From Trypanosoma brucei (Eukaryota), in the NCBI GenBank assembly GCA_000002445.1, contig CH464491.1:1472001-1536000 (forward strand): a DNA stretch of 64,000 nucleotides. The letters are read 5' to 3'. A program made the position numbers and the translations under genes. Positions within the stretch are counted from its first letter, which is position 1; every line of letters starts with the position of its first letter. Below the pieces are notes generated by a model. That model was not told where the DNA came from, searched no databases, and saw nothing but the letters and a program-made list of their open reading frames with translations. Of this stretch, positions 12,695 to 55,847 are shown piece after piece.

Positions 12695-13543
12695 ATGGAA
12701 GTTGTTGTAAGTTTTTTAAGTGGATGGGCCGGTGGCATAAGTAACCTGCTCGTCGGTCATCCCTTTGATACCGTAAAAACCTTGATGCAAGGCAACAAAG
12801 GGGAATATAAAAATTCTCTTCATTGCGCGAAACGTATTGTGATGGAGGGAGGACCCTTTGCCCTCTATAAGGGTGTTATTGCTCCAATGACGGGAACAGG
12901 TGTCGTCATGGCTCTTTACTTTGTTGCTTACGACGCCACCGAAACCCTAATCCGTAAACTGAAGGGTGTGGATTCACTCACTCCATTGTCTATGGGTGAA
13001 ATCATGTTGTGTGGCGGCAGTACTGGAGTGCTTGGGTCCCTGGTGCTTGGACCTGCAGAACTCCTGAAAGTTCGACAGCAAACCGCACTAAGCTCCGGTG
13101 CCCGTGGGTCATTGCGTGATGTTATTTTAAATATTTATCGGAAAGAGGGACCATTGGGTTTCACACGTGGGATCGGTGCCACTATGCTGCGTGATGTTCC
13201 TGGAAGTATGGCCTGGTTTGGGGCCTATGAATACACAAAGTTGCTGTTGTGTAAAAACCCAAAGGATCCTTCTGTAGGTGAGGCACTTTTTGCCGGTGGG
13301 ATGGGAGGTATAGCCGTATGGTCCTTCTCACTTCCTCTCGATTGCATTAAGACACGAGTGCAGGCAAGCCCTGTACCCCTCACTCCAGTGGTTGCATTTC
13401 GTGCTATTTTGAGTGAGCACGGAATCAAGGGATTCTATCGAGGCATCGGTCCAGCATTACTTCGTGCGTTTCCTGCAAATGCTGCCTGTTTCGCAGCCCG
13501 TGATAAAACGAAGTCCACACTAAACAATCTCTGTGGGATGTAG
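12695..13543 (+). CDS. Mitochondrial carrier family protein (SLC25; carnitine/acylcarnitine- or ornithine-carrier-like)
   Basis: Three tandem Px[D/E]xx[K/R] signature repeats: PFDTVKTLMQ, PAELLKVRQQ and PLDCIKTRVQ. About 282 aa with six predicted TM helices. Confidence 0.85.
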   Translation: MEVVVSFLSGWAGGISNLLVGHPFDTVKTLMQGNKGEYKNSLHCAKRIVMEGGPFALYKGVIAPMTGTGVVMALYFVAYDATETLIRKLKGVDSLTPLSMGEIMLCGGSTGVLGSLVLGPAELLKVRQQTALSSGARGSLRDVILNIYRKEGPLGFTRGIGATMLRDVPGSMAWFGAYEYTKLLLCKNPKDPSVGEALFAGGMGGIAVWSFSLPLDCIKTRVQASPVPLTPVVAFRAILSEHGIKGFYRGIGPALLRAFPANAACFAARDKTKSTLNNLCGM

Positions 13544-31641: not shown

Positions 31642-31850
31642 GACATATTCGAAAACTAAATACACATATCACTACTCCCCGCTGCTCCCGCTTCTCCATA
31701 CACTTGCGCTTGCCGAAGGCGGCAATAGGGAAAAGGATAATCACTGATTGGGGTAAGGGATAAATATCATTAACAATATCGGAGTCTCTGGGAAATAACA
31801 ATACCGCTTTGACATATCCCTTTGCGTTCAGTAAAACCTTCCAGGAACTA

Positions 31851-34447: not shown

Positions 34448-36520
34448 ATGTTAAGAACGAAAAGCACAACCGCTGCTGGCCGGCAGGATAAGATGTTAAA
34501 GCACCAAAGAGCATCGGCGCGTGGGGGCGAGACGGGGTCAGGGACTCGTACCCCTGAAGGTTTATCTCCATCGCGTGAAGTGCTGCGTCGCAGTGAGCCC
34601 CTGGCTACGTACAGAAGATATTCCGACAGCATTGGAGAGGATGGGTACAGTGACTCTGGGAAAATATACTGTGAACAATATCAGGCCGCTTGGACGAGAG
34701 TAACAACAGGGTGTATGTCGGGTATTGCATTCGTCCTAGTTGTTGCGGTCCTCTATGCCCTATATATACTCTGCAGTTCTTACATTTACAGTGTTGGCTG
34801 TGCTGTGGTCCTTTCTATCGCTCTCCATCCAAATCGTTGTGGTGGAGAAAGTCGTAATTGGAAAGGACGGTATATCGAAAGAATGCGCTCAACGCGCGAG
34901 AAATGGACGGGACGTTCGAGAGTTTTTGGTCTACTGGGTTCCCTTCTTTCCTTAACTCACTTTTTTCGGTATGCACTCGGGCGTGGTGTCGCCTTTTCTG
35001 GCGTTGACAAGCTACTTGGCAGAGCCGGTAAGAGAGGACGCAAGTTTGTCAAAATATGTGATCCCAGCGCTGGTAGTAACTCGGGGAAGGATTCAAAACT
35101 TCAGCAGAAACCAGCCAATGTTTTGCCTGCTGGAGACGCCAATTCTTTGAAGTGGCAGGAAGAAAGCACGCTTTCTTGTATTCTGTTGGTGGTCCTCATC
35201 TGCTTTGTCGCCCATTTGATGTTCGGCATACTGTTATTCCTTGGTATACATTCCATACTCATCGCCTTGTTCATCATCACCGTCCCTTTCATGACACCGG
35301 ATCGCTTCATGTCTGTGATGTGGCGCGTGTGGCTCTTAGCCATCACTGTCTTCTTCTTTGTTGGATTTTCATATAATGTTGCATTGGACGTCATTTCCAT
35401 CAGCGATGTCGTGAAGCAAACAACATCAGTTGTGGTTGAAGCGGGGGAAAAGTGGACGGGTGGGGTGAAGGAAGGCAATCGTACAAATGTAGCGGCAAGT
35501 TTTGCCAACGGAACTGCAGCCTCTTCCTCTTCCTTCGCTGAGTTTGTGAACATGACGCGGTCGAAACTGAACAAAATGTTTTTACAAGAGCTTGCTTACG
35601 CAATGAACCACACAAATGCAACGGAACTTGCCTTGACCGTGCAGCACGCAGTTTCTCCCTTGATGTCCTCCCTTTCGTCCGATATTAGCGTTCGTTCACT
35701 GCTGAAGAATGGCGGGAATATTCGGGGTAATTTTGCGCAACTCAAGAAGTTGTATGAACAAGTAGTATGGACCGATGTCGCACAAAAACTCATGGAACGG
35801 TGGCAAGAACTCTTTGTCTATGCAAATCAACTCTTGATGAAGCTGGGATCTAATGTTTTGAACCTCTTTGACTCTGTGTACGCAGTTATGTTATTGTTTG
35901 TCGTCATGCATCATCTATTGCAGTTGGAGCACACCGTGCTGTACTACATACTGGCGAAGTTGCTAAAAGTGCTAGATCCCCAGTGCGGTGAGTATCACGC
36001 ACGTAAGATTGAGACTGAGATAACGAACTCTTTCCACACTCTATTACAATCATTTTGGCATAAGGCATGTTTTCGATTTTGCATTACTTTTTGCCTTTTT
36101 AAATGCTGGTCGTTTCCAACGCCGTTACTGTTTGGTGTGGTTTCTGCCGTTATTGCACTTTTGCCACTCGCACCTAAGTGGATATCTCCTGTGGCCCTTA
36201 CATTCATGTACAAACTCTTCTGCGCGGCATATGGTGATGGGTTTGCAGCGGCTCTCGCAGATCCTTGTTTGTGGTGTTGCTTCTTGGCTTTTTGTGCAAC
36301 GTACATGGATGAGCGGTTGCTTTGTGTGTCGCAAGGGTTTCTCGACGATCGTTCTTCGGTAGCGTCTGCACCAGGGCAGTGGAAGCTGCCAACTGCTGTT
36401 ATCAGTACCGCACTTGTGTTGGGGTTCTTTCAGTATGGTGTATGTGGTATCTTTCTTGGACCGATGACAGTTGTCTTGGCAAAAGTTTTATACGATAACT
36501 GGGATACGGCAATGGAGTAG
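34448..36520 (+). CDS. Polytopic membrane protein, possibly AI-2E/TMEM245-like transporter family
   Basis: At least eight strongly hydrophobic segments. The C-terminal segment ALLPLAPKWISPVALTFMYKLF...GFFQYGVCGIFLGPMTVVLAKVLYDNW resembles the conserved C-terminal region of AI-2E (PF01594) family proteins. The family assignment is tentative. Confidence 0.6.
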   Translation: MLRTKSTTAAGRQDKMLKHQRASARGGETGSGTRTPEGLSPSREVLRRSEPLATYRRYSDSIGEDGYSDSGKIYCEQYQAAWTRVTTGCMSGIAFVLVVAVLYALYILCSSYIYSVGCAVVLSIALHPNRCGGESRNWKGRYIERMRSTREKWTGRSRVFGLLGSLLSLTHFFRYALGRGVAFSGVDKLLGRAGKRGRKFVKICDPSAGSNSGKDSKLQQKPANVLPAGDANSLKWQEESTLSCILLVVLICFVAHLMFGILLFLGIHSILIALFIITVPFMTPDRFMSVMWRVWLLAITVFFFVGFSYNVALDVISISDVVKQTTSVVVEAGEKWTGGVKEGNRTNVAASFANGTAASSSSFAEFVNMTRSKLNKMFLQELAYAMNHTNATELALTVQHAVSPLMSSLSSDISVRSLLKNGGNIRGNFAQLKKLYEQVVWTDVAQKLMERWQELFVYANQLLMKLGSNVLNLFDSVYAVMLLFVVMHHLLQLEHTVLYYILAKLLKVLDPQCGEYHARKIETEITNSFHTLLQSFWHKACFRFCITFCLFKCWSFPTPLLFGVVSAVIALLPLAPKWISPVALTFMYKLFCAAYGDGFAAALADPCLWCCFLAFCATYMDERLLCVSQGFLDDRSSVASAPGQWKLPTAVISTALVLGFFQYGVCGIFLGPMTVVLAKVLYDNWDTAME

Positions 36521-37094
36521 ACAATGTTTCTGCTCATTACGATTGTACACTGTATCTTTAAATTTTAAATATTGAGGACTCAATGTCCTGGTGTTGTGCC
36601 CCCCCCCTCCTCCTTGCATGTACCGTACACGTTAGGAATAGGTATAGCAACGGATCGGGAAGCAGGGAAGATAATAAAGAGAAATATGGAACAAAAGTCG
36701 GTGGAAGCAGTTGAGATACGGTAAGACGTAGTGGGCACTTCATGGTGTGGAATTGTTTTTCGATAAACTGTAATCTGCCCTTGCTCCTACGTGCTTTATC
36801 GTCATCGCTGATCCACAAGGTGACAATATACATGTATGTACACATGTACGGAAAACCACTAAGTAATAAACGAAGCGACCGTCGGTGTCTTGACGACGTA
36901 TTGCTTGTTACGTTGATTATAGTGATAACCGCACATACTCGTTCATGGAAGCTTTTGCTCTTCTATTCCCCGTGGACCCTTCGTGGTAACTCGTGTTGTG
37001 TGTTGCCTCCTGCGGACGGTCTCTGTCCATCCGTTCTCCCCTTTTGATTATGGTTGTTTGATAAAGGTGAGTCTATTCATACTCTTTCTCCTTC

Positions 37095-37943
37095 ATGAGA
37101 TGCAGCCGTGTCACATTTTGTAGACTTGAAATTCACAGGCAACTTGAGGTTTATCTGCGTCACTATAAGTGCAGCAGCCATTCTTCCGCTGCCATTCCCT
37201 CGGCGGTTGCTGCAACGCCTGTGCCATTGGTGCTCAAACCAACCTTTTTAGTGAGCGCCTGCCTCTTAGGAGAGCCTGTCACGTATCGTGGTGAGAGTAT
37301 TAAACCACGTAACCCGTGCTGCACGCCAATCGGATTTATCGTTGATTTCTTGTGGCGTCGGTGTGGTTTGATTGACTGTATTGCAGTGTGCCCTGAGATG
37401 GATGTTTTAGGTATGCCGTCACCACGGCCCCCATTACGTTTAGTACGCGATGCAGCAACTGGGCAGCGCTCAGCGTTATCGTCTGATGTTGCTGTGAGGT
37501 TGCCTCTGACACCATTCACTGATAACTGGACGGATGATAGCGGACTTAAGCAAAGGTTGACGCTTAGGGATCCGCGATTGGTTGAGGAACTTCTGCAAAA
37601 GCGGCTGATGGGTGTCGACGGTTGCGTGCTTAAATCCCGTTCTCCAAGCTGCGGTGTGGGCGATGCAAGACTTTACAACAATGTGGCGGGAGGAAAGTAC
37701 GTGAAGACGGATGGTTTTTTCGTGGAGTCGTTCATCCGTTCCTTTCGTTCGGATGGTGAGGCACCTTTACCGGTTGTAACAGAGAAGTCATTGTATTTTG
37801 ATGATGACAAGGTGCGAACAAGAATGAACGAAGCGAAGAAAAGTTGTAATTGTGGTGTGCTCGCTTTTTTAAATAGTGCGTTGAAGCGTCACGAAGCCCG
37901 AAAAGGCAACAGTGCTCTTGTTTCTCACCGGTATCCCTACTGA
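37095..37943 (+). CDS. DUF523 / TudS-like [4Fe-4S] protein (bacterial 2-thiouracil desulfidase family) with a eukaryotic N-terminal extension
   Basis: LVSACLLGEPVTYRG, CPEMDVLGMPSPRPP and LKSRSPSCG reproduce the three conserved Cys-containing motifs of DUF523 (SACLLG..RYDG / CPE..GLPTPRPP / SPSCG). About 55 aa N-terminal to the domain are unrelated (targeting peptide?). Confidence 0.75.
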   Translation: MRCSRVTFCRLEIHRQLEVYLRHYKCSSHSSAAIPSAVAATPVPLVLKPTFLVSACLLGEPVTYRGESIKPRNPCCTPIGFIVDFLWRRCGLIDCIAVCPEMDVLGMPSPRPPLRLVRDAATGQRSALSSDVAVRLPLTPFTDNWTDDSGLKQRLTLRDPRLVEELLQKRLMGVDGCVLKSRSPSCGVGDARLYNNVAGGKYVKTDGFFVESFIRSFRSDGEAPLPVVTEKSLYFDDDKVRTRMNEAKKSCNCGVLAFLNSALKRHEARKGNSALVSHRYPY

Positions 37944-38237: not shown

Positions 38238-38489
38238 ATGAATCAGTCTAGTTCATTATGGGGCGAGGAGTTTGAGGTGCTCAAGCAAATGCAGGAGGAT
38301 CGCATGAACTTCGCCAACAACATGACGTGCCACGAGCGCTGTGTCTCGCAATATTGGTTCAACAACTTCTACGGACCGGAGCACCGTTGCATGAGGAACT
38401 GCTTGGAGAAGTTAAATCAGGTGGGCGTTATCACAAATATTGTTTTCACAAAACATGAACAGGGTAAGACAGGAAGCAAAGGAAAGTAG
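38238..38489 (+). CDS. Small Tim-like protein (twin CX3C, mitochondrial intermembrane-space chaperone family)
   Basis: 83 aa. CHERC-(15 aa)-CMRNC is a twin CX3C arrangement with the typical spacing. Confidence 0.7.
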   Translation: MNQSSSLWGEEFEVLKQMQEDRMNFANNMTCHERCVSQYWFNNFYGPEHRCMRNCLEKLNQVGVITNIVFTKHEQGKTGSKGK

Positions 38490-43654: not shown

Positions 43655-45138
43655 CCTCGCAAAACTTCAAACAACCCTATTAAGTTACCTGTTGAGATTG
43701 TTCTTGAGAGTGTCACAACTGCTGTAAGGGTCCATTAACACAACGGCTAAATGGTTCGATGATGTGAGTGAAATATCTTTACCAAGACTGCCATGTATTG
43801 TCCTTTTAATTCTTAAAACGCAAATCTTTCCCCCTCTTCATTCGGACCCCTCAGGCCCGTGTCAACTGCAAGTGTGGCCTCTTCCCTATATTTTGAACAT
43901 GCGTCCATTTTTTTGTGCAAAAAAAAAATCCATCTACTTGGCCGTGTGCGTTGTGTGGTTGAGCCGGCTTCTGTCAGTAGTGGCTGCTCTGTTGTTTTTT
44001 TCGTCAATTTTTTTGTGGCAATATTTTCTGCTTCCGCCGCCACTTTGTTTTCATTTGCTTTGGGGATAAACTATGTTATTTTGTTTTTAGTCCTTTCTAC
44101 CTGCGGTGCTCGTGTGATTGGGGTGGGGGCGGTTGTCGCTGGTGGTGTGAGGTGGAACACGGCTAGAGTTCGCAAGGCGGCTAATGGTTGTAGGTGCCAA
44201 TGTAAGTACAAGTACATTTTTCTTTACTTTTATGTACTTATTTGTGACATGTGGCCACGTGCGTGTTGCAATATGTCGAATAGGGAGAACGTAGTTGAGA
44301 GGGGGGGGGGAAGGTTCATTCGGCGTGTCCGAGGTGACGCTCCCACGCAAAAAGGGTTCATATCTTTTCAACTAACTAGCAGAGGTGTACAGCAACTTTG
44401 TAGTGCTCTGCGGCAAATTTCTTTCTCCTTCGCTGAACAACTTGTGGTTGCAAATCATAGAGAAATTACATTGAGGAATACACATATATTTATATATAGA
44501 TATGATTCCGGCTGCTACAGAATTTTGCCTTTACAGGAAGTAAGGTGGTATCGTCTGCGTCTCTGTTCTTTTATCGTCTTGTGAGGGTTGTTATTTTAAT
44601 ACTTTTTTATTTTCCTTTACTCGAGATACTTGTTGTTTTACTCTTTCTCTCCTCCCGTTTTAGTTGTTTTTCTTTTTCTGTTACTTGTGTGAATGTCGGC
44701 CGTTTTGGTGGACGGGGCCCACTGAGTCAAATTGGTTTCTGGCACAACTTCGTCCTGTCAGGTTATAAATAGGCTTGGATGAACCCGTATAGAGAGTAGG
44801 AGATGATGGAAGGGAGCTGTTATTAAATATTGAAGGAGGCAAAGAACTGACGCATTAACCTATGAAACATATCATTTATAATGAAGAATGGTCCTCTATC
44901 TTTCCTTACACTTACTGTTATGATGTCAATTTTTTGTGTGTCTTTTTTAAAAAAAAAAAGAAAATTTTCTTACTATAAACGGCTGCCACTAGAGTAGCAT
45001 TCATAAATGAAAGCTACTACGGGATGTCTGCAACTGTTGTTTTATTTTCAACTGTCTTTTTTATCTACCTGTACATTCGTACCTTCACCTTTTTATCCGA
45101 AGCGCCCTTGTGTGGTGTAGGGGTAGTTTCACAGATTG

Positions 45139-46131
45139 ATGACCCAAGCTGTAGAAATGGCGCAATGCGATCGCGTCGTTATATTTTTAGACGTCGACGG
45201 CGTACTTTTGCCTGTACCACGTTTCACCTTTGGTGGAGGTGATCTCTCTCCTCAATGTGTTGGATACCTGCTGAAGATTGTTGACGCTTGTGGTACGGCA
45301 GAGAAAGTCACCATTATTCTTTCGTCCACGTGGCGCAACTTCCCTGCGCAGGTGCAGCGACTGAATAATTTCTTCGCTAAAACAGTAGGTGACGCCGTTC
45401 CACCAATTGCTGGTGGAACTCCAAACGGCACACCGAAGGTGACAGTGGTGTCGTATTATGCCGATGACCCAAGCGAACAACGTCTCGTCCGTGATCGTGT
45501 TGATGAGATAAAACGGTGGATAAACACGAACATGCGTGAACACCCTGAAGCCGTAGGCGGGCGCTGGTTCGCCATTGATGATATGCAGTTGGATGTGGAT
45601 GAACGTATGCGAGGTCATTTCCTGAAGACAACAACTGAAATCGGCTTGGTGGAAGATGATATCGAAAGAGCAAGGGAAATTATTGCTGCTTTTCCTCCAC
45701 CTGAAGAGGCAGCTCGTAATGCAGCAGCGGCCCTCGTTGATCCCGCTCTTAAGGATGAGGAAATCGATATATTAGAAACGCGTTGTCGAAATCTCTCAGA
45801 GACCGCGGAACAACTGAAGAACGACTTGGCAGAAGCACACGAAGAGATACGCCGCCTTCAAGGAGAGCGCACTGTGAGGGAGAGGGATATGAAGGAGTTG
45901 ACAAGACGTTTTGAAGATGTCAGTTATCGCTTAGCCCAGTATGATTTTTCGAAGAAAAACGCTGTGCTTCGCTCAGCAATAGAAGCTCTTGCGTCAAAAA
46001 CAGGCAAGGAGCGTCGGGAGTTGGAGGACCGCATAAAAACACTGGTGAATCTTCTGCGCCATAAAAAGGAGTTGGAGAAGATGGCGGCAAAAAATAGGAA
46101 GAAAGAGGGTCAAGCACAAGTAAAGAATTGA
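45139..46131 (+). CDS. Hypothetical protein with an N-terminal HAD-like phosphatase-type motif and a C-terminal coiled coil
   Basis: VVIFLDVDGVLLP (DxDG-type motif I) and ILSSTWR (motif II-like). The C-terminal 130 aa are heptad-rich (EEIDILETRCRNLSETAEQLKNDLAEAHEEIRRLQGER...). The track start 45136 is TTG. Confidence 0.6.
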   Translation: MTQAVEMAQCDRVVIFLDVDGVLLPVPRFTFGGGDLSPQCVGYLLKIVDACGTAEKVTIILSSTWRNFPAQVQRLNNFFAKTVGDAVPPIAGGTPNGTPKVTVVSYYADDPSEQRLVRDRVDEIKRWINTNMREHPEAVGGRWFAIDDMQLDVDERMRGHFLKTTTEIGLVEDDIERAREIIAAFPPPEEAARNAAAALVDPALKDEEIDILETRCRNLSETAEQLKNDLAEAHEEIRRLQGERTVRERDMKELTRRFEDVSYRLAQYDFSKKNAVLRSAIEALASKTGKERRELEDRIKTLVNLLRHKKELEKMAAKNRKKEGQAQVKN

Positions 46132-50666: not shown

Positions 50667-52361
50667 ATGACGCATCAATCAACTGATGTGTCCGGGCCGT
50701 GTGGCGCTGCCGTTCTAACAAATCGTTATCTCAACAGAGGAACCGCCTTTACCATTGAAGAGCGCAAACAGTTGCATATTCTCGGGCAGCTTCCTACAGT
50801 TGTTGAAACCCTGGAGCAGCAGGTGAAGCGTGCGTACAATCAGATGAAGAGCTGTGGCAAGCCCATCGATCAGTACCAACAGCTTGCTGCACTTCACGCT
50901 ACAAATACAACCCTTTATTACGCGACCATCTTTGCGCACCTTGAGGAAACACTTCCCATTATTTACACACCTACAGTGGGAGAGGCTTGCCAACGGTACA
51001 GCAGCCTTTTGTTTCGTGAGCGCGGGCTGTACTTATGCCGCACGTACAAGGGTATGTTCCGTACCATCATGCGCGATTCAGGGTACGAGAATCCGAAAGT
51101 TGTTGTAATAACTGATGGTTCTCGCATCTTGGGTCTTGGTGACCTCGGAGCAAACGGTGTGGGCATCAGCATTGGCAAATGTTCACTATATGTTGCCGGC
51201 GCCGGAATCAATCCAAAGAATGTTGTCCCCGTTGTACTTGACGCAGGGACAGATAATGCGGCTATGTTGAGTGACGATAATTATATCGGTGTGCGCCAAA
51301 AACGCCCCTCTGACGAGGATTTCTACGCTTTGTTGGATGAGTTCATGGAGGCTGCGAGTGAAGCATGGCCGGAAGCCGTTATACAATTTGAGGACTTCAG
51401 CAACAACCATTGTTTTGACATGCTTGAGCGGTACCAAAACAAGTATCGATGCTTCAATGATGATATTCAGGGAACTGGTGCTGTAATTGCTGCAGGCTTC
51501 CTAAATGCTGTGAAGCTTTCAAAGGTGGATCCCCTTGACCATCGTATTGTTGTGTTTGGCGCTGGTTCCGCTGCTATTGGTGTGGTGGACAATATTGCGG
51601 AGCTCACTGCACAACTGTACAACCTCAAGTCCGATGATGTGAAGAAGACATTTTATCTCGTTGACACAAAGGGTCTCGTTACCACTACGCGTGGCGACAA
51701 GTTGGCCTCCCATAAAGTGTCACTGGCTCGTACCGATGTCTCTGCAGAAGATTCAGCGAAATTGAAGACGTTGGAAGACGTTGTAAATTTTGTGAAACCG
51801 ACAACGCTCCTCGGACTTGGCGGCGTGGGCCCGGTATTCACGGAGAGCATGGTGAAGGGTATTCTAAACAACACGAAACGGCCAATTATATTTCCACTTT
51901 CCAACCCCACCAGCAAATCTGAGATCACCGCAGACAACGCCTTCAAGTGGACCGATGGTAAGGCAATTGTTGCCTCAGGAAGTCCCTTCCCGCCCACAAC
52001 TCTGAACGGCAAGACATACAAGGCATCCCAAGGTAACAATTTGTATGTTTTCCCCGGTATTGGACTTGGTTGTGCCATCGCGAAACCGGCGTATATTCCC
52101 AATGATTTACTTATTGCCGCTTCTCGCTGCCTTAACGGCCTTGTTTCAAAGGTGGGGCTTGAAGATGGATCTCTGTACCCTCCTCTGAGTGATATCCACA
52201 ACATTTCTGCCAACATTGCTACCGATGTCATTATGGAAGCACAGCGCTTGAAGATTGACAACAACTCTTCGTTGCCCCGCACACGAGCGGAGTTGATGGA
52301 TTATGTGAAGCATGCCATGTGGAAGCCGGAGTATCCAACAGGCATTCTCCCTGACGAGTAA
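50667..52361 (+). CDS. Malic enzyme (NADP-dependent), upstream paralogue without an N-terminal targeting extension
   Basis: IYTPTVGEACQ, FNDDIQGTGAV and GAGSAAIG (NAD(P) binding). Full-length 564 aa. Confidence 0.9.
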   Translation: MTHQSTDVSGPCGAAVLTNRYLNRGTAFTIEERKQLHILGQLPTVVETLEQQVKRAYNQMKSCGKPIDQYQQLAALHATNTTLYYATIFAHLEETLPIIYTPTVGEACQRYSSLLFRERGLYLCRTYKGMFRTIMRDSGYENPKVVVITDGSRILGLGDLGANGVGISIGKCSLYVAGAGINPKNVVPVVLDAGTDNAAMLSDDNYIGVRQKRPSDEDFYALLDEFMEAASEAWPEAVIQFEDFSNNHCFDMLERYQNKYRCFNDDIQGTGAVIAAGFLNAVKLSKVDPLDHRIVVFGAGSAAIGVVDNIAELTAQLYNLKSDDVKKTFYLVDTKGLVTTTRGDKLASHKVSLARTDVSAEDSAKLKTLEDVVNFVKPTTLLGLGGVGPVFTESMVKGILNNTKRPIIFPLSNPTSKSEITADNAFKWTDGKAIVASGSPFPPTTLNGKTYKASQGNNLYVFPGIGLGCAIAKPAYIPNDLLIAASRCLNGLVSKVGLEDGSLYPPLSDIHNISANIATDVIMEAQRLKIDNNSSLPRTRAELMDYVKHAMWKPEYPTGILPDE

Positions 52362-52540: not shown

Positions 52541-54131
52541 CGTTTCATGTTTTGTTTATTCATTTCGTCTTCATTTTACGTTCGCAGCAGCATTTTTTTT
52601 GTTTATGTTCTCTATTTTTTCTTTTATATTTTATTCGTCGCCTCGTTTCTGAGGTCTTTCGCCACTTTTACCCTTTGTTGGGGGCTGTTTGCAGTATGGT
52701 GAAAGTCTTTTACTGCTAGGATAATGAAATTGTGTATCGCATAACTGCGTGTAGAAAACGAACGGAATAAATTGGACATGAGCCAGTTACCGAGGTTTAT
52801 GAAAGAATTAACCACAGTTGTGGAGTGCCGTATACAAATGATGAAACGTATCGAAACGTGAAGAGAGAAGAAGTAGGCACGAGAGGGGATAAATTTTTTT
52901 TTTGTGATATGAAGGAGACGTTCGTAAGTTTTTCTCTTTTTTAGCCTATGAGCGTGTGTGCCGCAGCACAGGCTCTAGAGTTTCGTGAAGTATGAGGGTT
53001 CGAATGAGTTCCCGTACTTTTTCATATTTGAGAAACATTTTTTTTTTCATATGTGTCTGGTGGTTCATATTTGTTAGCCACTTTTTCCCCCTTCCTATGT
53101 TTATGGTGAACGCGTAAATAACAATTACTGTTGTAATCGCTCATCACACCGTGGCGGGTTGCGGTAGCCAAACTTCTCACGAAGAGGGTGGAGCTGCGGG
53201 GAGCGGAGGATTAATTGATAACGTCATGATAGTAAACAGGAGACACTTTTTTCATCAGTGTAAAATTCACGGTTCCGCAACAATACACGCCGAAGAGCCT
53301 CTACTTTTTTTACTGCAGTAATTAATTGCTGAGGAAAAGCAAATGCTTTTATATTGCAGGGAAAGGGGGGGATGCAAGGGGGAAAATATTGATATTGCAA
53401 TCTTTTTCTTTTTAGGGGGGGGGGAGATGCGGTGTAAGAGCGTAGAGGGACAGAGGTACATCAATGAAACACCAACTTTCAATGCGCTGTGGTTGCTTCT
53501 GTTGTGTCGGATTATGTTCGTCTGTTAATTGAGTTGGATGTGGTGCCTGTGTGTGTCGGGTTTTGAATTACAACTTCCAGATGCTCCTGTGCTTCATTGT
53601 CGATATATGTTTTCATTTATTTCTATCTTTATTTTTGTTTTGTATGTTTTGCCGTGTGTGCGTTGTGATTCTGTGATGAACTCATAGTTTTTGAAGAGAT
53701 AGGGTGGGCTCAGTGGGAAAATATTATATTCAAAATAAACTAGGAGGAAGAAATAACTTAAGGAGAAAGCACAATCAACGAGGAGGAAGACGTTCAGAAA
53801 CGCAAAAGACACACGAGCAGATCCAATATCATCATATCGCTTATCACTACGAGAATAAACTGTCACTTTTATTTGTTCCCCCCTATTAACGTTGAGCGAA
53901 AGGAGAAAAGTAAACAAATTGAAAGGGAGTAAGTTGTCATTTGGATGACGAAACTACACTTGTTTTTGGCATCCCTCTTCAAATTTTTTTCCACTTTCGT
54001 TTTATGATTTAAAGAATTGTTATAAAAAACAAGATAAGGACGTGTTGACGAGTACAAACAAAAAAGGAGGAAACTAAGGTTACTTAAGCAAGTCATACTC
54101 TGCTTTGAAGAAAAATCAGGTAACAGGTGCG

Positions 54132-55847
54132 ATGTTGGGTCGTTCGTTTAAACTTTGTGTTTCCACAAACGCCCGTGGGATCGATTTTCTCCGCAACCGT
54201 TTCACCAATAAGTCAACCGCGTTCACACGGAAGGAACGAGAACACCTCGGTGTTGTTGGGCTACTTCCACCCGCGGAGGAGACACTTGACGACCATGTCA
54301 AGCGCTGCTGGACACAATTGACCCATTTGGAGTACCCAATCAACAAATACCAACTCTTACAGGGAATTCTCAGCACTAATACTGTTCTTTATTACAAGAT
54401 TGTGGAAACCTACATGAAGGAAACACTTCCAATTATTTACACACCTACAGTGGGAGAGGCTTGTCAAAAATACGGAAACATCTTTCAAAGAGACCATGGA
54501 CTCTACATAAGCATGAAGGAACGTGGGGTGATCCGGCAGACCCTTGAAAACCTTCGGAAACCTGAGGTTGAAGTTATTGTAATAACTGATGGTTCTCGCA
54601 TCTTGGGTCTTGGTGACCTCGGAGCAAACGGTATGGGCATCAGCATTGGCAAATGTTCACTATACGTTGCCGCCGGTGGAATTAACCCGAGCCGCATCCT
54701 ACCAGTTATGATGGACGTGGGGACAGATAATGAAGGACTTCGTGCGGATCCTCAATATCTTGGTTTGCGCCAAAAACGCCCCTCTGACGAGGATTTCTAC
54801 GCTTTGTTGGATGAGTTCATGGAGGCTGCGAGTGAAGCATGGCCGGAAGCCGTTATACAATTTGAGGACTTCAGCAACAACCATTGTTTTGATATGCTTG
54901 AGCGGTACCAAAACAAGTATCGATGCTTCAATGATGATATTCAGGGAACTGGTGCTGTAATTGCTGCAGGCTTCCTAAATGCGATCGAGGCAAGCGGCAT
55001 TCCTGCAGAGGATCATCGAATAGTGTTTTTTGGCGCTGGTTCCGCTGCGACAGGTGTGGCCACCTGCATTGTTGACTTGGTTGCCGCAAAGTACAAAAAG
55101 ACGTTCGCAGAAGTGCAGAATAACGTATATCTTCTTGATACCAAGGGTGTCATAACAACCACGCGTGGCGACAAGTTGGCACCACACAAGGTCCCGTGGG
55201 CCCGCACTGATATTTCAGCCGAGCAGAGCAAGTCGCTTTCCACATTGGTGGATGCTGTGAAGTTTGTAAAACCAACAGCGCTGATCGGCCTTGGAGCCCA
55301 AGGTGGTGTTTTCACTGAGGATATTCTAAAGTTTATGCGATCATACTGCGAGAAGCCTGTGATTTTTGCACTTTCCAACCCCTCAAGCAAAGTGGAGGTT
55401 ACTCCAGACAACGCCTTCAAGTGGACCGATGGTAAGGCAATTGTCGCAACTGGCAGTCCCTTCCCGCCCACAACTCTGAACGGCAAGAAATATGAGGCAT
55501 CCCAAGGTAACAATTTGTATGTTTTCCCCGGTATTGGACTTGGTTGTGCCATCGCGCAGCCGAAAAATATCCCACAGGAGGTACTCCAAACAGCGGCCGT
55601 CACCCTCAGTAAGTTAGTGGATCGTAATGTCATGGCTTCTGAGGGAGCACTGTATCCATGTATTGATGAAGTGCGTGAAGTGTCGAAACAGGTGGCAGCT
55701 GCTGTGATTGAAAAGTTGCAAGAGATGGGTTTGGCAAAGGAGGGGTTGCCCACAAGCAAAGGGGAACGATTGAAATTGGTGGAGGAACGGATGTGGACAC
55801 CCAAATATCTTGAACCGGAATATTACCTGTCGAAGAAGCTGGAGTAA
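54132..55847 (+). CDS. Malic enzyme (NADP-dependent), downstream tandem paralogue with an N-terminal mitochondrial-presequence-like extension
   Basis: IYTPTVGEACQ, FNDDIQGTGAV and GAGSAATG. The N-terminus MLGRSFKLCVSTNARG is basic and hydroxylated. The track start 54105 is TTG; the ATG is at 54132. Confidence 0.88.
   Translation: MLGRSFKLCVSTNARGIDFLRNRFTNKSTAFTRKEREHLGVVGLLPPAEETLDDHVKRCWTQLTHLEYPINKYQLLQGILSTNTVLYYKIVETYMKETLPIIYTPTVGEACQKYGNIFQRDHGLYISMKERGVIRQTLENLRKPEVEVIVITDGSRILGLGDLGANGMGISIGKCSLYVAAGGINPSRILPVMMDVGTDNEGLRADPQYLGLRQKRPSDEDFYALLDEFMEAASEAWPEAVIQFEDFSNNHCFDMLERYQNKYRCFNDDIQGTGAVIAAGFLNAIEASGIPAEDHRIVFFGAGSAATGVATCIVDLVAAKYKKTFAEVQNNVYLLDTKGVITTTRGDKLAPHKVPWARTDISAEQSKSLSTLVDAVKFVKPTALIGLGAQGGVFTEDILKFMRSYCEKPVIFALSNPSSKVEVTPDNAFKWTDGKAIVATGSPFPPTTLNGKKYEASQGNNLYVFPGIGLGCAIAQPKNIPQEVLQTAAVTLSKLVDRNVMASEGALYPCIDEVREVSKQVAAAVIEKLQEMGLAKEGLPTSKGERLKLVEERMWTPKYLEPEYYLSKKLE

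Follow-up and report, generated by a model that had tools for sequence, protein, structure and literature searches.

A kinetoplastid-type TudS protein of Trypanosoma brucei as a candidate mitochondrial thiouridine desulfidase

The gene at 37095..37943 and its catalytic domain

The window analysed here is a 64-kb stretch of Trypanosoma brucei DNA (64,000 nucleotides), and the gene in question is an ATG-to-stop open reading frame (ORF) found exactly at 37095..37943 on the + strand. The ORF itself, a Pfam match and identity to database entries mark it as the coding sequence, 282 amino acids plus stop, of a kinetoplastid-type member of the TudS (DUF523) family. The protein is proposed to be a mitochondrial [4Fe-4S] desulfidase acting most likely on imported tRNAs, and we put the probability of this proposal as a whole at about 0.4. 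The translation is a 100% match to T. brucei brucei TREU927 XP_828613.1 / EAN79501.1 / UniProt Q385N0. The protein is annotated there as 'hypothetical protein, conserved', and the T. equiperdum copy carries the label 'Protein of unknown function (DUF523)'.

The gene for TbTim8/13 was used as an anchor for the window. A published cloning primer for TbTim8/13, ATGAATCAGTCTAGTTC, matches the start of the ORF at 38238..38489, and a published supplement places TbTim8/13 (Tb927.11.5390 / Tb11.02.3065) at Tb927_11_01_v4:1510238-1510489(+), which is 38238-38489 of the window. The whole window therefore corresponds to chr11:1,472,001-1,536,000, and 37095..37943 to chr11:1509095-1509943. Since Tb927.11.5380 (old ID Tb11.02.3060) is listed immediately before Tb927.11.5390, consecutive numbering makes it almost certain that the gene is Tb927.11.5380. 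The positions of MCP9 (5290) at 12695 and of the malic enzymes (5440/5450) at 50667 and 54105 agree with this order. All long ORFs of the window lie on the + strand, which is the layout of a trypanosomatid polycistron, and the gene is embedded in it as the first-pass annotation had stated.

Upstream of the start codon a polypyrimidine tract at 37034-37045 is followed by AG at 37065 and 37070. Judging from general trypanosomatid gene structure this region (37034..37071, + strand) is likely to be the spliced-leader acceptor. An ATG at 37050 opens an ORF of three codons only. M1 is the sole methionine ahead of the first conserved cysteine, C56, so the N-terminal extension described below must be translated. 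The GC content of the gene, ~0.49, is the same as that of the adjacent coding DNA, and a signature of recent transfer was rejected on this ground.

The Pfam profile PF04463 ('2-thiour_desulf', formerly DUF523) matches residues 52-216 with 65.2 bits (E = 8.6e-18; profile positions 2-132 of 141). The gathering score is 34.7, and the match bears out the DUF523/TudS identity given in the first-pass annotation. The only solved relative is TudS 6z92, which is detected by phmmer with E = 3.5e-5 and shares 26-29% identity with the protein, and the three-dimensional fold is that of TudS. The three signature blocks noted earlier are all present, as SACLLGEPVTYRG (C56), CPEMDVLGMPSPRPP (C99) and SPSCG (C186). 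Their cysteines align with C10, C43 and C104 of TudS, and the claim that they correspond to the cluster ligands thus stands. The second block had been written as CPE-x3-G; CPE and the glycine are found, but the spacing is x4, because the kinetoplastid type has one residue more at this point than bacterial TudS.

Block 1, LVSACLLGEPVTYRG (amino acids 52-66; 37248..37292, + strand), contains ligand 1, C56 (37260-37262; C10 in TudS). Y64 in the same block corresponds to Tyr18, while T63 stands in place of Arg17 and R65 in place of Asp19. Block 2, AVCPEMDVLGMPSPRPP (amino acids 97-113; 37383..37433, + strand), contains ligand 2, C99 (37389-37391; C43), as well as E101, the equivalent of Glu45. Ligand 3, C186 (37650-37652; C104), is found in block 3, GCVLKSRSPSCGVGDARLY (amino acids 176-194; 37620..37676, + strand), together with S183 and S185 (Ser101 and Ser103), P184 (Pro102), Y194 (Tyr110) and the clade-typical R192. 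The domain ends in a C-terminal helix (amino acids 254-279; 37854..37931, + strand) with the family-invariant F258, which is the last helix of the TudS domain, and a kinetoplastid-type insertion (~amino acids 234-253) directly precedes it.

In TudS the catalytic residues are Glu45, Ser101 and Ser103, and Tyr18, Pro102 and Tyr110 sandwich the base and the sugar of the substrate (PMC10611767). In an alignment of 16 kinetoplastid and bacterial sequences, the columns of the catalytic E101, S183 and S185 are invariant, and so are those of C56, C186 and the stacking residues Y64 and P184. The third stacking residue, Y194, is invariant within the clade, while C99 is found in all sequences but that of T. 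vivax. Over the range from Bodo to Trypanosoma, nine of the ten active-site residues of TudS show strict conservation. In sequence and model, the three cysteines C56, C99 and C186 sit where TudS has those that hold its [4Fe-4S] cluster and leave one iron free. By analogy, the thiouracil ring would stack between Y64 and P184 and its sulfur would bind the free iron, whereupon E101, S183 and S185 may aid a hydrolytic exchange of sulfur for oxygen via a [4Fe-5S] intermediate, and the uridine moiety would be released. TudS-type desulfidase chemistry is highly probable for a protein with these residues.

The same logic is found reversed in the tRNA thiolation enzymes of the TtuA/Ncs6 type, where the free iron of a three-cysteine cluster carries sulfur as [4Fe-5S] (Shigi 2021, PMC8584467). 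These enzymes gave no sequence or structure match to the protein; their fold and family are unrelated. Membership in the CD3072 family of putative desulfidases (NCBIfam NF045597) was rejected as well, since the match is weak and local, covering the SPSCG block (residues 174-218) with 13 bits against a cutoff of 130.

Some of the orthologues raise the question of whether the protein is a desulfidase at all. It could instead be a carrier of Fe-S clusters or sulfide, catalyze another C-S lyase reaction, be a structural subunit, or be drifting towards loss of function. The T. vivax Y486 orthologue (P0003) has a glycine for the second ligand cysteine (GIGPEM compared to VCPEM), which counts against desulfidase activity and may stem from an error in sequencing, from a swap of ligands or from lost function. 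A Leishmaniinae-type sequence from a Logan assembly (P0058) has SSSLSCG as its active-site block, with Arg replaced by Ser and Pro by Leu, and PRAP for PRPP; it may stem from one lineage in which the copy is decaying. The family also evolves fast, with 42-52% identity among the Trypanosoma orthologues and with 8 of the 282 residues differing between T. b. brucei and T. b. gambiense (P0001; K25S, S27G, V188A, V203L, S217P, V239G, R240Q and M243K), which seems high for subspecies. In addition, the protein was not detected in the readable proteomic tables. Loss of desulfidase function is nevertheless improbable, given the strict conservation of nine active-site residues mentioned above. The single changed position is altered in concert across the clade, which indicates purifying selection on the catalytic pocket rather than decay. 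As side observations, all eight brucei/gambiense substitutions are found outside the catalytic residues, and T. vivax keeps a trypanosomatid-conserved cysteine four residues upstream of the lost ligand.

A clade with a remodelled pocket

Orthologues are found in T. congolense, T. vivax, T. cruzi marinkellei, T. conorhini, T. rangeli, T. melophagium and T. grayi. They are also found in Leptomonas seymouri, L. pyrrhocoris, Leishmania (Mundinia) species, Angomonas deanei, Phytomonas and the free-living Bodo saltans. As both trypanosomatids and a bodonid have the gene, it predates the split between the two and is fully 'domesticated'. In a word-indexed search with a kinetoplastid profile, the clade members score at least 146 bits and the best prokaryotic proteins, mostly RudS-type fusions, at most 84 bits. 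An exhaustive search of 1.84 billion representatives returned 3930 relatives, among them an intermediate tier of environmental sequences with the same signatures. A neighbour-joining tree of 157 sequences and 173 columns groups Trypanosoma with 92% bootstrap and recovers, with 46%, a 51-member group that contains every named kinetoplastid and is separate from all bacterial-type sequences. Below this clade the bootstrap is too weak, and neither a sister group nor a donor lineage was recovered.

The clade differs from its relatives at the only active-site position that is not conserved. Arg17 of TudS contacts the 5'-phosphate of the substrate and is the basis of the preference for 4-thiouridine monophosphate (4-thio-UMP) (PMC10611767). 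At this position none of the 51 clade members has an arginine; T, A, S, N, Q or V is found instead, in T. brucei T63. Two residues further on, at the position of Asp19, 50 of the 51 have R, H or K. All 106 other relatives combine Arg17 with Asp or Asn at position 19. A third difference is R192 in 'GDARLY', which is an arginine in 46 of the 51 clade members and mostly Pro or Lys elsewhere.

The loops between the cysteine ligands are also longer in the clade. The median spacing from Cys1 to Cys2 is 44 residues, compared to 32 in both stand-alone TudS and RudS, and that from Cys2 to Cys3 is 90, compared to 66 and 63, respectively. In T. brucei the ~12 extra residues between Cys1 and Cys2 lie in an enlarged loop after block 1, ESIKPRNPCCTPIGF (amino acids 67-81; 37293..37337, + strand). 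The insertion between blocks 2 and 3 (amino acids 118-170, with helices at 151-168; 37446..37604, + strand) is evident from the spacing and from a gap in RudS in the hhalign alignment. In the clade, Cys1 lies at a median distance of 83 residues (range 41-172) from the N-terminus, compared to 12 in stand-alone TudS and 19 in RudS. Compared to TudS (PDB 6Z92/6Z96), the stand-alone DUF523 [4Fe-4S] thiouracil / 4-thio-UMP desulfidase, the kinetoplastid type thus lacks Arg17, has ~12 and ~25 extra residues between the ligands and an N-terminal extension of 40-170 amino acids, and is eukaryotic and predicted to be mitochondrial. The median isoelectric point (pI) is 9.0 in the clade, 6.5 in stand-alone bacterial TudS and 9.6 in RudS. 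From the alignments we conclude that the substrate pocket has been remodelled in comparison with bacterial TudS, and that the gene belongs to a divergent TudS subtype, which is visible in databases as 'DUF523' but is unstudied.

Among named sequences this variant subtype is, by its sequence features, restricted to kinetoplastids. The 185,579 prokaryotic species genomes of GTDB were scanned with two patterns, one of them written for the variant motif, and the scan returned only ordinary Arg17-type DUF523 proteins with 31-41% identity and no close prokaryotic relative. All 65 fully-motifed GTDB loci are of the type with Arg and Asp/Asn. The first-pass description of the gene as bacterial-type and anciently transferred can be no more than tentative, as the subfamily signature is found in 0 of these 65 loci and in 0 of the 106 bacterial-type relatives. 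A bacterial ancestry of the family as such is plausible, because TudS proteins are overwhelmingly prokaryotic. No bacterial donor lineage could be retained, since the bootstrap of the tree is weak, the contigs of the outer clade members are uninformative and GTDB gave only ordinary DUF523. Two divergent clade-member contigs carry an F-box-like gene and a eukaryote-type tryptophanyl-tRNA synthetase (TrpRS) gene on the same strand and are therefore eukaryotic. The supplements of the Euglena mitochondrial proteome contain no DUF523 entry.

RudS, the closest system in terms of a tRNA substrate, is a fusion of TudS and DUF1722 that erases 4-thiouridine (s4U) at position 8 of bacterial tRNA (PMC11417400). 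Its catalytic half aligns with the kinetoplastid protein with an hhalign probability of 99.9%. RudS-type proteins are the best-scoring named prokaryotic matches to the kinetoplastid profile, and both are basic. RudS differs in that it keeps Arg17 and Asp/Asn19. The modification in question, s4U at position 8, is not known from trypanosome tRNA. The loops of the RudS protein RudS_KT were mapped by means of the landmarks Tyr25, Glu51 and Ser113. The Arg17 swap and the enlarged loop following it then fall in loop 18-33, and the DARLY segment in loop 116-135. These two loops have been implicated in tRNA recognition by RudS (PMC11417400), so the kinetoplastid-specific changes fall in the very loops that RudS uses for tRNA contact. 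When it comes to DUF1722 itself, a profile of 16 RudS sequences aligned by hhalign covers only RudS positions 7-175 of 324. This rules out that a remnant of DUF1722 is hidden in either terminal extension; the C-terminal helix is the one with which the TudS domain normally ends.

The remodelled pocket, with Arg17 lost, a basic residue two positions further on, R192 gained and the loops enlarged, suggests that the substrate is not free 4-thio-UMP. On sequence grounds a polynucleotide would be a better fit than 4-thio-UMP to the basic pI, to the lost phosphate contact and to the changes in the loops equivalent to those of RudS. Nevertheless, a single TudS domain without DUF1722 is the architecture of the bacterial salvage enzymes, which are inactive on tRNA, and all catalytic and base-stacking residues are kept. 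The main rival reading is quite possible, though short of probable, and about as likely as a tRNA substrate: that the protein serves in salvage or detoxification of thionucleotides and desulfurates free thiolated bases, nucleosides or nucleotides, as the stand-alone bacterial TudS do. These could stem from turnover of the cell's own 2-thiouridine (s2U)-containing tRNAs, or from s4U-rich bacterial RNA in bacterivorous or gut-dwelling kinetoplastids, and their desulfuration would feed them back into the uridine pool and keep them from being misincorporated. The family reaches back to the free-living Bodo, which is bacterivorous, and absence from mitochondrial proteomes would be compatible with another location or with low abundance. 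Salvage is harder to reconcile with the replacement of Arg17, the residue that gives TudS its nucleotide preference, in every clade member, and a small-molecule substrate leaves the clade-specific helix, the loop enlargements and the basic pI unexplained. Furthermore, C5-modified 2-thiouridines would yield no salvageable uridine, the predicted mitochondrial targeting points to no obvious place for pyrimidine salvage, and we know of no eukaryote that makes s4U.

Predicted location and possible tRNA substrates

The N-terminal extension (amino acids 1-47; 37095..37235, + strand) has a basic start, MRCSRVTFCR, followed by a low-confidence linker, and is predicted to act in mitochondrial targeting. 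It has no counterpart in bacterial TudS or RudS, as hhalign leaves this stretch unmatched, and Cys1 is found at residue 56, whereas its median position in the stand-alone proteins of bacteria is 12. The net charge over the first 25 amino acids is +4. Alignment, AlphaFold and hydrophobic moment together define a conserved amphipathic/aromatic helix, LEIHRQLEVYLRHY (amino acids 11-24; 37125..37166, + strand). AlphaFold gives a helix at 13-24, in a block with a predicted local distance difference test (pLDDT) score of ~85, and the hydrophobic moment peaks at amino acids 13-23. The equivalents of this helix are 'LLDAY-RRG' in other Trypanosoma, 'AAWWRQHGLQERV' in Leishmaniinae and 'MLQWLQEH' in Bodo. 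The first-pass annotation was thus right about the existence of an extension, but not in calling it unrelated, as the aromatic helix is conserved across the whole clade.

It had also been suggested that the extension could be an organellar signal, and as a possibility this is supported, with disagreement between the predictors. Tb927.11.5380 is included in a mitochondrial reference set, with a 'mitochondri' annotation in TriTrypDB and a positive TargetP prediction (Peikert 2017 Suppl. Data 2a). The N-termini of the Phytomonas and Angomonas orthologues and of two further sequences (P0155 and P0152) contain a long Arg-rich stretch with no acidic residues among the first 25 amino acids, which is what one would expect of typical mitochondrial presequences. 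The orthologue of L. pyrrhocoris carries 'putative mitochondrial' in its name. By-eye inspection revealed no glycosomal (peroxisomal-type) targeting signal, neither a PTS1 at the C-terminus, which reads -YPY, nor a PTS2 near the N-terminus. The basic N-terminus is accordingly predicted to direct import into the mitochondrion, and a mitochondrial location is somewhat more probable than not.

Several observations weigh against the location and thereby against the proposal as a whole. MitoFates is negative for Tb927.11.5380, and the protein is unmarked for detection in earlier mitochondrial proteomes in the same table (Peikert 2017 Suppl. Data 2a). It is missing from the table of Zikova 2017, although both 5370 and 5390 are present there, and it was not found among the importome-table entries listed, nor in the TrypTag supplements. 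In T. brucei only ~10 basic-start residues precede the conserved helix, and any presequence in Trypanosoma would therefore be very short.

All mitochondrial tRNAs of trypanosomatids come from the cytosol by import. According to the review PMC4394434, which cites Bruske et al. 2009, T. brucei imports thiolated tRNAs and dethiolates them inside the mitochondrion, as described for tRNA-Glu. Thiolation of imported tRNA-Trp to s2U33 gates the C34-to-U editing of this tRNA, and the ratio of edited to unedited tRNA matters (PMC8677022). In eukaryotes, targeted removal of tRNA modifications was as of 2024 known only for demethylation (PMC11417400). The substrate of the kinetoplastid protein may thus be 2-thiouridine of imported tRNAs, that is 5-methoxycarbonylmethyl-2-thiouridine at position 34 (mcm5s2U34) of tRNA-Glu, tRNA-Gln and tRNA-Lys, and possibly s2U33 of tRNA-Trp. 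In the literature searched no enzyme is named for the post-import dethiolation, an activity reported in 2009, and no paper pairs DUF523 or a desulfidase with trypanosomes; the family is also absent from a 2026 survey of the tRNA enzymes of T. cruzi. A link between the gene and mitochondrial tRNA thiolation can reasonably be drawn, but tRNA as the substrate is a tentative assignment that we rate below even. That Tb927.11.5380 is the orphan mitochondrial 'dethiolase', specific for 2-thiouridine and with tRNA-recognition elements of its own in place of DUF1722, is a narrower claim and, taken in full, rather doubtful.

The doubt has several sources on the substrate side as well. The protein gives no match to PF08349 (DUF1722) at E <= 1, and no further RNA-binding domain could be recognised in it. 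TudS strongly favours 4-thio substrates, whereas the tRNAs of trypanosomes carry modifications of the 2-thio type. A basic pI is common among mitochondrial matrix proteins and thus not specific to RNA binding. Bacterial stand-alone TudS is inactive on tRNA (PMC10611767), while RudS needs its DUF1722 domain (PMC11417400). The first-pass annotation had described TudS as an enzyme acting on 2-thiouracil; this was corrected, as the characterised TudS enzymes favour 4-thio-UMP and do not bind 2-thio substrates specifically (PMC10611767).

A special case of the tRNA proposal is that the enzyme is a regulatory eraser of s2U33 in mitochondrial tRNA-Trp, which spares the wobble mcm5s2U and sets the ratio of edited to unedited tRNA-Trp. 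As s2U33 is a negative determinant of editing (PMC8677022), its removal would have a regulatory role, and the arguments from mitochondrial location and remodelled pocket apply here in the same way as to the wider proposal. The gene is also found directly downstream of TrpRS in two bodonid-like contigs, but gene order in polycistrons is not functional evidence, and the adjacency is absent in T. brucei. Dethiolation of tRNA-Trp is not reported in the literature examined, and the sequence gives no distinction of position 33 from position 34. An enzyme dedicated to s2U33 is for these reasons very unlikely.

As for the broader proposal of a mitochondrial thiouridine desulfidase, Tb927.11.5380 is a single-copy, kinetoplastid-wide and concrete candidate for the orphan activity; its chemistry is suitable and its predicted address is the mitochondrion. 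Should the narrower dethiolase reading be true in full, it would be the first eukaryotic eraser of a tRNA thio-modification and, within its family, the first with specificity for 2-thiouridine. Thiolation of tRNA controls the editing by which trypanosome mitochondria read UGA as Trp. Even if free nucleotides turn out to be the substrate, the clade-wide move of the phosphate-binding arginine still marks a new TudS subtype. We know of no human counterpart of the enzyme.

Neighbouring genes and gene order

Directly downstream of the gene lies that of TbTim8/13 (Tb927.11.5390; 38238-38489, + strand), a small Tim chaperone of 83 amino acids with a Tim10/DDP zinc finger. The upstream ORF (34448-36520, + strand) encodes a multi-pass membrane protein of 690 amino acids, whose only match is one to AI-2E_transport, at the C-terminus and below threshold. 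The gene numbering makes it probably Tb927.11.5370, an entry of the mitoproteome table of Zikova 2017, and in that case the DUF523 gene would have genes for mitochondrial proteins on both sides. The kinetoplastid Logan contig L002 has the order DUF523, small Tim and SRP54, as in the window.

A different order is found in the two divergent bodonid-like contigs mentioned above (L001:3588-5885 and L003:1499-3774), where DUF523 lies ~100-140 bp downstream of a TrpRS gene of the eukaryote/archaeal type. The two TrpRS are 62% identical, and the order F-box-like, TrpRS, DUF523 is shared by both contigs and absent in T. brucei. The adjacency is curious, since tRNA-Trp is the tRNA whose editing is gated by thiolation, but the reservation about polycistron gene order given above applies here too.

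Domain fusions were considered as a clue to function and rejected. In a clade member from EukProt with 1012 amino acids (P0163), the N-terminal part is an aldo/keto reductase and the C-terminal part DUF523. This mirrors the order in the window (aldo/keto reductase at 31809, membrane protein at 34448 and DUF523 at 37095), and it is probably a merged gene model of a relative with the same synteny rather than a genuine fusion. Relatives of 714 amino acids contain no other Pfam domain.

Further away, the mitochondrial carrier MCP9 (Tb927.11.5290) is encoded at 12695-13543. This ORF is also exactly 282 amino acids long and was therefore considered as a possible paralogue within the window, but the carrier is unrelated. 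Two tandem malic enzyme genes (5440/5450) are found at 50667-52361 and 54105-55847 (+ strand), and Tb927.11.5450 belongs to the mitochondrial reference set. An ORF of 331 amino acids at 45136-46131 (+ strand) matches HAD_SAK_2 ('HAD domain in Swiss Army Knife RNA repair proteins') with 89.9 bits, and the polycistron thus contains another domain of a type associated with RNA repair.

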